This document shows positions 1 to 63,655 of a DNA stretch of 64,000 nucleotides, in pieces; the first letter of the stretch is position 1, and the number at the start of each line of letters is the position of its first letter. The notes below the pieces were generated by a model, which saw only the letters and a list, made by a program, of their open reading frames with translations, did no database searches and had not been told where the DNA came from. Position numbers and translations under genes: made by a program. The stretch covers positions 1-64,000 of the forward strand of contig CAXHJY010000087.1 of assembly GCA_964016885.1 (NCBI GenBank), read 5' to 3'. This stretch comes from Eledone cirrhosa. Lineage: Eukaryota.

Positions 1-28
1 ATTCGAGGAAACATATATAATGCGTCAG
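1..28 (-). CDS. Partial, diverged exon A: (x)DALYMFPR...
   Basis: Acceptor ttttgtttatgttttctAG at 29-60 (minus). The peptide is diverged but keeps Y-x-x-P. Cut by the window edge. Confidence 0.65.
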
Positions 29-3000
29 CTAGAAAACATAAACAAAATAATAGTAAAACTGTATGTATATTTAGAAATATATATTACAAATACAGAAAAC
101 AATTATTAGACTAATTATCTCTGATATACTGATATATTCACCAGGTTCGAACACAAAAAGAACCAATTTACCACCTCCTTGCCATATATGTATATATATA
201 TATATATATATATATATATATATATATATATATATATATATATATATATATATATATATATATATATATATATACATATACATACATACATATATAATGA
301 AACATTGAACAGGGACAGAACAGAGAGGCAGTACGATGTTTATTAAATTCACGCTCAGGAGAGTGGGGGGTAGGTGGGGGACGACGTTTCGGGCATAAGA
401 CCTTCTTCAGGTGAGAAGTGTGTGGGAACAGAGTTCAAAAGGTGTGTAGGGGAGTGATGGAGAGACATATAGCGAAAGGAAACGGTGCGAATGGAAAATT
501 AACAAATAAAGGCAAAAAATATAATAAATAAAAATAAAGCATGATCAAAATACAAGGAATGAGAAAATTTAAAAATAAAGGCATGATCAAAATAAACTGA
601 AATTAAAAGGGGGGTAAACAGGTGGTGGAATGGTGTGGGGTGAGTAGGGGTGGTGGCGGGTGGAGTGGGGAGAGGGAGACGGGGTGTCCGAGCGGGGAGG
701 GCTGAAGGTGGTGTGTGTGGTTAGGTGTGCGTGTGTGTGTGTGTGTGTGTGTGTATGTGAAAGTGAGGGTTGGGGGAAGAACGGGGATGCATGTTCAGGA
801 AGGTGTGTTGGGGGTGTTTTTGTGGGTCGGAGTGTATGTGCGTGTGTGGATAGGGGGGTGGGGGGGGAGAGGAATCAGGAGGCTGAGGGTGTAAATATGT
901 GGTGGGAAGCACGTGTGTGTGGTTTAAGCGTGTTGTGGGTGTGGGTGGCGTGTGGATAAAAACAAAAAAAAAAATTGTGTTGGGGTGTGTGTGGGGGTGA
1001 GTTGTATAGGTGATGGTGTAAGAGTATGGTTGAAAAGTTGGTAAGTTCCACGGATGTTTGGAGATTTTGGTTATAAGTCAATGACGCGTGTGGGTAATCC
1101 AAGAAGCGGTGGTCGGAAGAGGAGAGATGTGGGGTGCGCGCGCAACAGGAAGTGGTCAGCAGTGGGAGTGCTGTGGTCAGTTGGTGCTGAGAGGTGGTCG
1201 GAAGGGCATAGCAGCAGTCGGCGGAATGGTAGGGAGGCGAGGATGGGTAGGTGTGGGCGTGGGAGTGAGGAGGGTGTCTGTGTGTGTGTGTGTTAGTAGG
1301 GGTTTTAGTGGGATGAGTGAGTGTGGAGCGGGGAGAGAAGGGTGTGTGTGGTTCTATGGAGGGAGTGTGGTGTACTGGTGTGTGTGTAGTTTGGTGAAGA
1401 GGTGTTAGTGGGTGTTAGTATACGGGATGTGGGGAGGGGTGGAATGCAGGTGTGAGTGGGGGTTTTAGTGGGGGTAGGGTGTGTAGAGTTGGTGGTGTAC
1501 GAGGGTGTGTGGGTACGTGTGCGTGGGGTTGGAGGGTGTTAGTGATGTTAGTTGCGTGTGGGTTGGGTGGTGTAAGTGTGTACGTGTGTGCGTGTGATAA
1601 GGATGGGGAGAAGAGGGGAGGGAGGGGATGTTAGTATGTTAGTTGGGGAAGGGTGGTCAGATGAGGGGGTGGAGTGGAGGTGTTAGTATTGTTAGCGTGG
1701 GGTGGGCGTGGAAAGGAGGGGTGTGTTAGTGGTGTTAGTGGGGGATACGTGTGGCGGGAGGGGGGCGGTTGAACGCTAAAGGAATAAGGGTGGGGAGTTC
1801 AGGCCGGGGGGAGTGTGGGTCTGTAAGATGAAGATAGTACGTTGTTCGACCGTAAGGCGATGGGCGGGTGTTCCGTGGCACTGGAGTAGGCCACAGACTG
1901 TGAGATGTTGCATATATATGTATTTATATAAATGAAACCTTTCAGGACCACGGCGTCTTAGCTCCGTAAATATACATTTACTACCAAATTTTCTCTAGTC
2001 ATGACTACAGTCGTTATAACTAAAGTTTATTCTTACATACACTCGCATACAGAGTGTGAAAGGAGAACCTCACACTCACACACACACACACAGGGCTCAG
2101 ACACTAAAAAAAGCCAGCAAACCAACGGATAAACACACACAAACAGTTACGCGATAAAGTTATATACAACCCAATATACATATATATATATACATCAACA
2201 TACGCAAAACACCAGCATGACTTCACTTACATATATCTACACACTATTTTATACATCATTTACAGCATACACAAATATATATTGTAATCTGGATTTGACA
2301 TTAATGTTGAAACACGTGTCATAGTTCTCTGTACACACTAATTCAAAGTGTGTTTGAAATACAACTTACGTTCTTTGGAGACAGCATATGTTTCTATGCC
2401 AGGTTAACACGTTTTTGCGATATTTATATATATATAAATATATATATATATATATATATATATATATATATATATATATATATATATATATATACATATA
2501 TAAGTATTTATATAAATGAATCCTTTCAGGACCACGGCATCTTAGCTCCGTAAATATACACAACTTTATTCTTACATACACGCGCAGACAGAGTGTGCAC
2601 AGAGGAATTCACACTCACACACGGAAACACTGGGCTCACAGATACAGAAAACCACCAAACCAATGGACAAACACACACAAACAGTTACTCGATTATGTTA
2701 TATACAACCCAAAATACATATATGTATACATCAACATACGCAAAACACCGGCATGACTTCACTTATATATATATATATATACACACTATATTATTCATCA
2801 GTTCCAGCATACACAATATATAAGTTTTCATGTTTACAAATATATAATGTAATCTCGATTTGACAATGATGAAACACGTGTCATAATCTTCTGTACAGTG
2901 GGTTTGAAATACAACTTATGTTTTTTGGAGACATCATCTCTATGTATGCCTGACTCAGAAATAATGTTCTCTACAGGAGACACAACTGGAAAAAATACGG

Positions 3001-63000: not shown

Positions 63001-63655
63001 ATGCTAGAAGGCTTTCTTGGGAAGAGTTTGTTGTCAATTTGAAGAAATGGTAGAATAAGGCGTCGTATTTTAAATTAGCTAGAACCATTTATTTATATAT
63101 TGTGTGTCTGTAATTATGAGACAAATATGGAGGTTTCCATCTGGGCCTAAAGCACAAACATATATAATGGTATAAGCAAATATGTAGAGCAATGGCTGAT
63201 CTAGTGGATACAGGGATGAGGTGTATGAAGAACGACGGACGACCAGAAGTAGTGAAGAAGTGTCGGACTCAACTTTGTTATATTTGAGAACACTGACGTC
63301 TGAGATAATTCCATCTACCGCAATGTATCTAGTGCAACATTGATCTTCTCTTTTTAACCAGATATAATGTAATTCTTGCATAGCTAACTCTGATAATGGC
63401 CTGAACAAGTGTATCTTTACTTTTGACCTCATTGTAAGGTCTCTGAGGTTCGAAGTCAATAAAATGTTTATCCTTGATTATGTTGGGAGTTTGTAATTTA
63501 ATATTCTAGCCTGAATTAACTAGTTATAAATGCACTGATCAAAACATAAATAAGTTTCTGAATAATGAATAGATATTTTAAAAATTATTTCTTACCATTT
63601 TCAGTACGTGGGGTCTTGAATGTTGCACTTTGAGGAGACAAATATGAAGCGTCAG
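1..63655 (-). CDS. Interior of a multi-exon gene built from ~30 tandem two-exon modules (exon A 60 nt + exon B 66 nt) encoding a 42-aa repeat, consensus [42 protein letters not shown]; start and stop lie outside the window
   Basis: On the minus strand each unit reads ...ttattttgtttatattttctAG|CTGACGCT...GAAAATG|GTAAGA (exon A), then a ~625-nt intron, then ...ttcttccgtatttttttcAG|TTATTTCT...AAAGAAC|GTAAGT (exon B), then an intron containing the TA tract. Both exons are multiples of 3 and phase 1-1; junction codons are G+TT=Val and C+CT=Pro. I saw no stop or frameshift inside the 31 complete A exons or 30 intact B exons, whereas adjacent intronic ORFs carry stops and indels. Expression cannot be shown from sequence. 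Confidence 0.8.
380..415 (-). ncRNA. Hammerhead-ribozyme-like core of the PLE pLTR (possibly degenerate)
   Basis: Minus strand reads CTGAAGA-aggtcttatgccc-GAAAC-gtc-GTC. Core boxes are present, but stem II is weak and stem I has no obvious adjacent partner. Confidence 0.45.
1776..1910 (-). pseudogene. C-terminal 44 codons of a PLE GIY-YIG endonuclease
   Basis: Manual translation, ending ...[11 protein letters not shown] (stop at 1776-1778). Below the ORF-track cutoff. Confidence 0.7.
2920..2985 (-). pseudogene. Diverged exon B copy with dead donor (ATAAGT instead of GTAAGT): (V)[21 protein letters not shown]
   Basis: The acceptor ttttttccAG and 66-nt open frame are kept, but the + strand reads acaacttatg rather than acaacttacg. 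Confidence 0.6.
3385..3570 (-). mobile_element. tRNA-derived SINE (MetaSINE-like central domain) with 19-bp target-site duplication
   Basis: Minus strand: A-box tggctgtatcgg, B-box gagttcaaatccc, then ctttgccttttatccttacggggtcgataaaataaagtaccag. TSD is ctttttaa(t/c)ctaatataat at 3366-3384 and 3571-3589. The insert is absent from all other units. Confidence 0.88.
4104..4292 (+). mobile_element. Short insertion in a TA tract: 55-bp perfect inverted repeat plus ~80-bp tail; probable 3' pLTR fragment of a third PLE with an inverted 5' end
   Basis: Arms 4104-4158 and 4160-4214 surround a single A. The right arm holds a hammerhead 3' half (GAAACGGCT-tgagctc-AGCTGTC, stem III + GUC) without CTGANGA. 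Flanked by TA on both sides. Confidence 0.6.
7722..7787 (-). CDS. Exon B (representative copy), 66 nt: (V)[21 protein letters not shown]; variant ...[14 protein letters not shown]
   Basis: Long polypyrimidine+CAG acceptor and AAC|GTAAGT donor. Copies (low coordinate, each 66 nt): 4793, 6271, 7722, 9196, 10636, 12185, 13952, 15493, 17276, 18977, 20394, 21804, 23429, 38639, 40053, 41539, 42968, 44396, 45861, 47459, 48878, 50329, 51988, 53496, 54925, 56740, 58163, 59580, 61259, 62905. Confidence 0.8.
8413..8472 (-). CDS. Exon A (representative copy), 60 nt: (P)[19 protein letters not shown]
   Basis: Polypyrimidine+TAG acceptor and ATG|GTAAGA donor. Copies (low coordinate, each 60 nt): 3817, 5485, 6963, 8413, 9887, 11324, 12877, 14640, 16185, 17964, 19667, 21085, 22492, 24119, 39330, 40744, 42229, 43660, 45087, 46551, 48150, 49569, 51020, 52679, 54187, 55616, 57431, 58854, 60271, 61950, 63596; partial copy at 1-28. 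The diverged copy at 5485 has a GTAAGT donor, so the change keeps the consensus. Confidence 0.8.
24403..25583 (-). repeat. pLTR-like direct repeat (second copy at 30570-31753)
   Basis: Both copies start tatgtagataaatctaccaagag and match through acatagactcata. Confidence 0.9.
24594..24748 (-). ncRNA. Hammerhead ribozyme copy in the 3' pLTR of the left element
   Basis: Reverse complement of 31781-31935. Confidence 0.78.
27974..30417 (-). CDS. Same Naiad RT-GIY-YIG polyprotein, inverted copy, same A9 frameshift (T9 at 29788-29796)
   Basis: ORF-track proteins 29782..30438 and 27974..29476 are identical to 32258..32914 and 33220..34722. Confidence 0.9.
30761..30915 (-). ncRNA. Hammerhead ribozyme copy in the 5' pLTR of the left element
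   Basis: Reverse complement of 31781-31935. Confidence 0.78.
31781..31935 (+). ncRNA. Type-I minimal hammerhead ribozyme with greatly extended stem II (pLTR)
   Basis: Stem I ttcattattt/aaatagtgaa; CTGAAGA at 31791; stem II ggcgtatatatg/cacatatatgcc plus ggtatgtatatttaa/ttaaatatgcatacc; GAAAC-GATC-GTT with palindromic loop III. Predicted cleavage is after 31925. Confidence 0.78.
32279..34722 (+). CDS. PLE (Naiad clade) reverse transcriptase-GIY-YIG polyprotein, ~813-814 aa when restored; split by a frameshift at A9 (32900-32908)
   Basis: N-terminus [17 protein letters not shown]...FIRRVRWRA. After a -1 shift the frame is open: [11 protein letters not shown]...[11 protein letters not shown]...[13 protein letters not shown] (RT motif A), [12 protein letters not shown] (motif B), GLYRDD (motif C), [17 protein letters not shown]. 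Then [15 protein letters not shown] (CxCx5C, Naiad-typical), IVYKC...SYIGAT...FKTRYNTH (GIY-YIG), CRLC and CNH. Confidence 0.9.
35235..37360 (+). repeat. (TG)/(TA)/(TATG) microsatellite-rich 3' region internal to the Naiad element (mirror copy ~25330-27460)
   Basis: Read directly. Present in both copies, so it is part of the element. Confidence 0.85.
37952..38106 (+). ncRNA. Hammerhead ribozyme copy in the 3' pLTR of the right element
   Basis: Same sequence as 31781-31935. Confidence 0.78.

Follow-up and report, generated by a model that had tools for sequence, protein, structure and literature searches.

A probable hidden gene of more than 100 tiny duplicated exons in Eledone cirrhosa, one member of a candidate multigene family

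The array in the window and the gene model around it

The window considered here is the whole stretch of 64,000 nucleotides at the start of contig CAXHJY010000087.1 of Eledone cirrhosa (C114:1-64000; C114 is a 99-kb contig of a 3.0-Gb assembly), and its minus strand carries an array of tandemly repeated modules, each with a 60-nt segment (A) and a 66-nt segment (B). The original prediction took this apparent satellite for a hidden giant gene. Given the unique exons that flank the array and the depletion of stops and indels within the segments, this is most likely correct, and the window appears to be the central part of a ~130-kb protein-coding gene with >100 tiny duplicated exons. An ungapped scan of the minus strand from 63655 to 2920 locates 31 A and 31 B segments; the phase-1 frame is open in 62/62, the AG acceptor is present in 62/62 and the GT donor in 61/62, and 61/62 have both. 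The two-exon modules, their 1-1 phases and their peptides are as first described, and 31 A plus 30 live B exons provide 1,280 codons, in agreement with the ~1,280 aa of repeat that had been estimated. All five positions that had been quoted as stops or indels outside the exons (14065, 19175, 20846, 45950 and 49350) are indeed intronic. Two other claims need adjustment. The proposed unit size of 1.35 kb applies to a unit without its (AT)n tract; the true period is about 1.41-1.82 kb and varies because each unit holds such a tract of variable length. There are about 30 modules as proposed, but a 13.7-kb insertion breaks the array into 17 + 14. The long ORFs (open reading frames) of the units run through (AT)n tracts, and we reject them as artefacts.

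Two further copies of this array, inverted relative to each other, some 4.3 Mb apart and sharing their unique flanks, are found on the 136-Mb contig C28: copy a lies on the minus strand near 0.09-0.22 Mb and copy b on the plus strand near 4.54-4.67 Mb. In copy b the gene model opens with a 226-nt first exon that has an ATG and a phase-1 donor (at C28:4542721), followed by older A/B variants, part of them in A-A-B groups, and then by the homogeneous array. Downstream of the array lie diverged modules, nine unique exons of 48, 60, 78, 57, 63, 51, 66, 63 and 63 nt whose splice flanks have the motifs seen in the array, and, at C28:4672534, a final exon that contains a stop and AATAAA. Unique in-frame exons are thus present on both sides of the array, as expected of a gene. 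When the called exons are joined, copy b, with 122 internal exons, yields a model protein of 2,596 aa, and copy a, with 110, one of 2,348 aa. Base 1 of contig C159 adjoins the end of C114; C159 carries exon 1 at 99% identity and C1507 carries the 3′ end. The window copy's own first exon therefore sits on the abutting contig C159.

We also note that, close to where contig C28 begins, C28:48k-243k and 4.52-4.71 Mb are inverted duplicates of each other over at least 190 kb, with about 99.8% identity; this may be either a real palindrome or a duplicated haplotype. An intronic ~96-bp minisatellite occupies C28:4654096-4662328 (L031:4096 to L032:2330), covering 8 kb there, in copy b, while its counterpart in copy a is about 19 kb long. 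We considered whether this array (C28:4654-4662k) might be one giant exon and rejected the idea: the array lies within an intron and contains only short, interrupted frames.

The three copies raise the question of what the window copy itself is. C114, copy a and copy b are only 0.07-0.24% apart in their unique flanks, the window copy is spread over three small unplaced contigs (C159, C114 and C1507), and the 13.7-kb insertion is missing from both C28 copies; it is therefore a real possibility, if the less probable one, that the family is genuine and the window copy is an alternate haplotype or assembly duplicate of one of the C28 loci, or that the insertion has silenced it. Three near-equidistant copies cannot, however, all be alleles at one diploid locus, and their array contents differ, with exact counts of a B 23-mer of 25, 29 and 23 among the three. 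In addition, the insertion is intronic and the splice-intact exons of C114 are open in 99/99 cases (below), and we consider that the window's own copy is probably functional.

Features of the window are collected in Table 1. In block 2 the last three modules are more diverged, and the splice-dead B exon at its end is probably skipped in splicing. The A-B intron of the last module holds a short insertion at about 3425-3580, which may be an octopus SINE-like element. A search of Rfam gave 0 matches within the window.

Table 1. Coordinates of repeat blocks, exons and insertion in the window
Feature	Positions	Strand	Remarks
Repeat block 1, 17 two-exon modules	38639..63655	-	17 A and 17 B, all open, all AG/GT
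Module layout in block 1			A 60 nt, ~625-nt intron, B 66 nt, then intron with (AT)n tract
Repeat block 2, 14 two-exon modules	2920..24178	-	14 A and 14 B, all open, AG/GT 27/28
Example exon A, phase 1-1, 20 codons	61950..62009	-	
Example exon B, phase 1-1, 22 codons	61259..61324	-	
Splice-dead B exon, donor ATAAGT (AT for GT)	2920..2985	-	Dead in both C28 copies too
Decayed B remnant behind (AT)n tract	2370..2435	-	Without acceptor, broken frame
Start of extra diverged A exon	1..28	-	Cut at contig end; whole at G000:C28:4638632
Intronic insertion within (AT)n tract, 13.7 kb	24406..38157		

The 13.7-kb insertion has 6.4-kb inverted arms (24540-30940 and 38160-31756) that are 99.7% identical, and also a 1.2-kb direct repeat. 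Its mirrored ORFs, at 32228-34719 (+) and 30468-27977 (-), are each spread over two overlapping frames. A protein search with them, which returned an Octopus protein, finds 82 relatives at E <= 1e-10; Pfam gives no significant match. Their motifs may be those of a PLE-type RT plus GIY-YIG endonuclease. Both the inverted copy structure and the microsatellite target are shared with Penelope-like elements, for which the available part of PMC8557442 describes tandem or inverted copies and insertion into microsatellites. The insertion is probably a young Penelope-like retroelement.

Selection on frame, exon length and splice sites

A scan for splice signals in 15 regions, with no filter for length or frame, made 402 calls, of which 402 have a length divisible by three (3n) and 0 lie on the opposite strand. 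Its weight matrices were trained on the flanks of the same exons, so it finds homologous exons easily; the non-trivial part of the result is that the unique exons of 48, 51, 54, 57, 63 and 78 nt are likewise all 3n. Among 88 distinct exons a stop occurs in the proposed frame in only 2; the other two sense frames have stops in 53 and 79, and shuffling predicts 60.8. In an extended set of sequences, 503/506 exon calls are 3n, at 48-78 nt, and 500 are open. A homology-based census in which splice sites were not required for detection gave, for C114, 102 segments, 99 of them splice-intact and 99/99 of these open; the corresponding counts are 127/124/123 for copy b, 117/114/113 for copy a, 89/88/85 for the C28:43.4M copy and 30/22/21 for the 3′ part of the C18 copy. 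The AG acceptor is invariant in 37/37 representatives that are at least 7% apart.

Rates were estimated from parsimony trees of 127 A and 100 B modules. On these trees there is 1 stop where 18.1 are expected, and 2 frameshifting indels where 20.7 are expected. A conservative count of distinct alleles gives 1 stop versus 12.4 expected (P 6e-5) and, with homopolymer indels left out, 1 frameshift versus 11.5 expected (P 1e-4), P values that are approximate because the repeats share ancestry and conversion. The expectation that exons should diverge less than introns is borne out for indels and stops, which are strongly depleted in exons, and fails for substitutions, whose rates are not below those of the introns. 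Conservation of the 42-aa repeat sequence itself, which had also been expected, is contradicted by the ratio of nonsynonymous to synonymous substitution rates (dN/dS), which is 0.95 for A and 1.12 for B on the trees and 0.67-1.25 in pairwise comparisons. Selection is shown statistically to maintain frame, exon length and splice sites, and not the amino acids of the repeats. The first exon behaves otherwise, as six pairwise comparisons over residues 1-43 give a dN/dS of 0.07-0.33 in all but one, which is without synonymous change; the heads of copy b and of the copy at C28:126.7M, for example, differ by 8 synonymous and 2 nonsynonymous changes.

A number of observations weigh against this coding interpretation. 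Substitutions per site are 3.2 in A exons and 2.8-3.0 in their flanking introns, and 3.1 in B exons and 2.0-2.1 in theirs; this excess may be partly due to the higher GC content of the exons (0.42, versus 0.24-0.25 in flanking intron), a difference that by itself speaks for the coding reading, and we do not claim positive selection. A dN/dS of about 1 in the repeats is also what non-coding DNA would give. In the head, synonymous divergence is 25-42%, versus 4-5% in the adjacent intron 1, and CpG hypermutation or gene conversion may have inflated the head dS (synonymous rate). Exon 1 is frameshifted in the copy at C28:28.78M and has a stop in that at C28:46.47M, where the census gives 13/12/10 and 2 of the 12 splice-intact exons are frameshifted; an A exon has a stop at C18:9.37M, 3 of the 88 splice-intact exons at C28:43.4M are frameshifted and 8 of 30 segments at C18:5.15-5.18M are splice-dead. 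The penultimate exon of copies a, b and C1507 contains a stop (G000:C28:4671589, L033:1589-1651) that is absent from the C18:5.15M copy and costs about 35 C-terminal residues. Finally, a search for retrocopies with either junction 20-mer gave 0 matches in the genome.

Some of these points can be qualified. Transcripts with a stop less than about 50 nt before the last exon junction escape nonsense-mediated decay (NMD); the penultimate-exon stop, only 34 nt before that junction, would therefore escape it. In copies a, b and C1507 the last exon holds another early stop; the C18:5.15M copy reads through both stops. The contrast between the synonymous divergence of exon 1 and that of the first 300 nt of intron 1 (L020:2955-3250; L066 near 9000-9270), where subfamilies differ by only 4-5%, could stem from conversion, from a regulatory element or from CpG decay in Arg codons. 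The pseudogene at C28:28.78M was tried as a neutral control and rejected as too diverged, with just 6 segments found. Contigs from three read sets at window 60900-62150 run continuously through introns and exons and have the A-B joint among 0/10 of the joints listed for them; they are DNA-like and uninformative on splicing.

If the array were a satellite, a non-coding transcript or a set of dead genes spreading by unequal crossing-over, with no protein made, then the repeat dN/dS of about 1, the exon rates at or above intron rates, the lack of a homologue and the several broken copies would all be accommodated. Such a reading is nevertheless very improbable, since the depletion of stops is confined to one frame on one strand, length differences between exon types are all 3n, head dN is far below dS, and start, stop and poly(A) signals occur in the correct order; a satellite unit should be free of frame-specific constraint, and the frame and stop tests found such constraint. 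That the coding family is real is highly likely on the sequence evidence.

A family of loci across the genome

Exon 1 has 17 matches in the genome at 65-100% identity, on C28, C18 and C159, and the penultimate exon has 11. When the two are paired, 10 chromosomal loci with both ends emerge, 51-132 kb long, in addition to the copy split over C159, C114 and C1507. The idea of one giant gene thus holds in that a complete gene model can be built, and needs widening in that this gene is one of about 17 members whose repeat units differ by subfamily. We sampled 12 of the 14 other copies 10-20 kb downstream of exon 1; 9/12 have exon arrays with their own repeat sequences and 3/12 have none within the first 10 kb, two of these three having exons further downstream. 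Subfamily 1, the window type, has 77 exact copies of a 23-mer genome-wide, subfamily 2 (C18 type) has 168 exact copies of a 26-mer, and subfamily 3 (C28:34-54 Mb type) has three-exon units. The C18 copy that was sampled to its end has its last unique exons in common with copy b. The family is larger and more widespread than the window alone reveals, and the window very probably holds a hidden protein-coding gene. Overall, the best explanation is likely to be a lineage-specific protein-coding multigene family, with the window as the repeat centre of one member.

Individual loci show further features. Six family members lie in mixed orientation within 4.2 Mb at C18:5.15-9.38 Mb, a cluster that suggests large segmental duplications. 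The locus at C28:28781240-28860400 is a short, strongly diverged member with few, unusual internal exons, and it may resemble the state before expansion. In the read contigs at window 60900-62150, the depth of diverged modules is near 8,000-10,000, versus about 400-600 for window-identical ones, although the depth of such contigs is not a copy number. The differences in the high-depth contigs are those of the C18-type module at 34/34 checked sites, and assembled C18 and window modules number 168 and 77. A possible reading is that assembly missed part of the C18 subfamily, or that it was more amplified in that sample; at the speculative end, one subfamily could be amplified about tenfold beyond what is assembled.

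Outside the family, we note that PF14830 (the molluscan haemocyanin domain) has 39 matches in the genome, which marks it as molluscan, and runs of seven units per gene on C1 would fit an octopod; haemocyanin genes form an inverted pair at C26:21.93-22.02 Mb and three tandem copies at C1:173.74-173.91 Mb.

The predicted protein and comparison with known systems

Searches for homologues, families and folds are all weak for queries this short or repetitive, and the results below should be seen in that light. Exon 1 found a homologue in 0/75 candidates among longer proteins. An exon-1 profile run against 1.84 billion representatives gave only 2 matches, to unrelated repetitive proteins, which scored via many weak stretches and were rejected as homologues. 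An extended exon-B profile gave 0/8000 candidates, a weak test as half of the query was intron-derived. The ESM Atlas returned no usable match and Foldseek against the PDB returned 0; three matches at E 0.03-0.04 from a PDB sequence search were rejected. Pfam recognizes no family in 10/10 B exons or 4/4 unique exons (short queries, scanned singly), and in exon 1 it gives a sub-threshold PEHE match alone. We found no description of the family in the published literature searched, and the available part of PMC13282606 makes no mention of it; in the corresponding part of PMC9068888, unnamed orphan gene arrays in squid are reported (its Supplementary Table 4).

The head encoded by exon 1 is basic, with 42% Lys/Arg in residues 1-43 and two basic clusters. 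AlphaFold, run on an alignment of seven sequences (mean pLDDT 71.7, pTM 0.39), predicts helices at 3-25 and 28-47 around a Cys-Pro-Cys motif (CPC), and a low-confidence tail. The first helix is amphipathic, with a hydrophobic moment of up to 0.66, and Cys14, Pro27 and Cys28 are invariant in 7/7 aligned heads. By hydropathy alone there is no signal peptide or transmembrane segment, the maximum over 19 residues being 0.65 overall and -0.25 in residues 1-43. The repeat tail has 25% Ser+Thr, 9% Pro, a net charge of about 0 and 139 SP/TP sites. It is probably disordered, with FoldIndex < 0 in 70% of windows; on the other side stand the whole-protein FoldIndex of -0.002, which is borderline, and the C18-type repeat, which at +0.157 scores as folded.

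We propose that each gene runs from the 226-nt first exon through tens to >120 symmetric phase-1 micro-exons and a few unique micro-exons to a short exon with stop and poly(A) signal, and that genomic modules of two or three exons were duplicated in tandem to produce the micro-exons. With all internal exons 3n and phase 1-1, gain, loss or splice inactivation of a module would leave the frame intact, and through such frame-neutral gain and loss arrays would change in length and acquire new sequence variants; copy numbers and repeat types do differ between loci. The gene would be transcribed, with most live exons included. The Arg/Lys-rich helix-CPC-helix head would anchor the protein, preferably to a membrane by its amphipathic helix and a palmitoylated Cys, with chromatin as the alternative. 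The charge-neutral, Ser/Thr/Pro-rich tail of ~2,500 aa would be a mostly disordered, phosphorylatable spacer or brush, for which length and composition matter more than sequence; its length would be set by unequal crossing-over between modules, which the (AT)n tracts may promote. Such an anchor-plus-spacer function is plausible, with the balance tilted slightly against it, and it counts against the anchor role that it is drawn from features of the sequence alone. Expression in germline or sperm is a tentative guess, made by analogy with fast-evolving multi-copy families.

The chromatin alternative deserves separate mention. Ki-67 is known to form a brush on the chromosome surface, and the protein could be a nuclear or chromatin protein of that kind, or a spermatid nuclear protein, in which the head serves as import signal and DNA anchor. 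The basic composition of the head and the many SP/TP sites of the tail would suit such a role. A Cys beside an amphipathic helix is, however, a rule of thumb for lipidation, and the invariance of Cys14 and Cys28 fits that better; there is just 1 full [ST]Px[KR] site, and the searches gave no similarity to a known nuclear protein. We therefore regard a nuclear role as rather unlikely.

As to meaning, if these genes are expressed they are 70-130 kb long, their proteins reach about 2,600 aa, and repeat maskers and ORF-based annotation would conceal them; such hiding may explain the lack of homologues in protein databases that include Octopus proteins. They would also show cleanly, in nature, selection that holds frame, exon length and splice sites while leaving amino-acid identity free, which would make them useful for testing how disordered spacers evolve.

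The closest parallels in architecture are two primate families. NBPF/Olduvai (DUF1220) is a lineage-specific family with repeats in doublets of a small and a large exon, which grew by tandem addition and gene duplication to 23 genes with 5-60 domains and whose products are intrinsically disordered (10.1101/2021.07.06.450945, available part), with a genomic unit of about 1.6 kb (PMC9584774, likewise in part). Shared with it are a tandemly amplified exon doublet per repeat, a multigene family with variable repeat number, and higher-order triplets, here the A-A-B units. Unlike NBPF, the family described here has no Olduvai/DUF1220 similarity that Pfam could detect (0/10 B exons, short queries), its repeat is shorter (about 42 aa, against about 65), it has a basic Cys-containing head, and it is found in a mollusc rather than in primates. 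The DAZ gene, as described in the available part of PMC2322974, is present in several copies within inverted duplications, and each 24-aa repeat of its polymorphic array, which has 8-24 of them, is encoded by a single exon. Copies a and b similarly form a 99.8%-identical inverted pair. DAZ differs in having RRM domains and a known single-copy ancestor, neither of which was found here (no RRM match in Pfam with exon 1 or the 4 unique exons scanned singly, and a composition that argues against a folded domain); in addition, the repeats here are modules of 2-3 exons and the arrays are 5-10 times longer.

The micro-exon genes (MEGs) of Schistosoma, according to the available part of 10.1101/2023.06.21.545858, are lineage-restricted and hard to annotate automatically, with short, mostly 3n exons and disordered products. 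In our family, too, the coding region consists mostly of short symmetric exons (503/506 calls, above). A MEG-like mode of expression would have these exons skipped combinatorially, yielding many shorter isoforms and rarely the full-length giant; internal exons are indeed all symmetric and skippable, splice-dead exons are tolerated and the amino acids evolve freely. Against this, the young arrays hold mostly identical exons, so skipping would alter length and not sequence, splice signals are strong and uniform, and MEGs have the signal peptide that hydropathy fails to find here; we judge this mode unlikely. MEGs also have 10-20 exons and products of up to 189 aa, compared with 60-125 tandemly duplicated exons and models of 2,300-2,600 aa here. 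Two further systems share single features: the titin PEVK region has many short symmetric exons that code for a disordered spacer, and LPA kringle IV-2 consists of two-exon genomic modules of variable copy number. Both are single conserved genes with folded domains, unlike the present family, in which no folded domain was detected and repeat sequence turns over.

The architecture is thus NBPF/Olduvai- and DAZ-like without detectable homology, and from its sequence the family appears to be a member of neither, nor of the MEGs. It is a doubtful but attractive idea that a cephalopod lineage independently invented an NBPF/DAZ-like system of young giant orphan proteins, with a conserved lipid- or chromatin-anchoring head, a polymer length tuned by module copy number and a sequence repeatedly replaced at neutral or faster rates; such a system could be one of germline or sperm, under sexual or genetic conflict. 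It would extend the exon-module amplification of primate NBPF and DAZ to a mollusc, with subfamilies at different stages of turnover in one genome.

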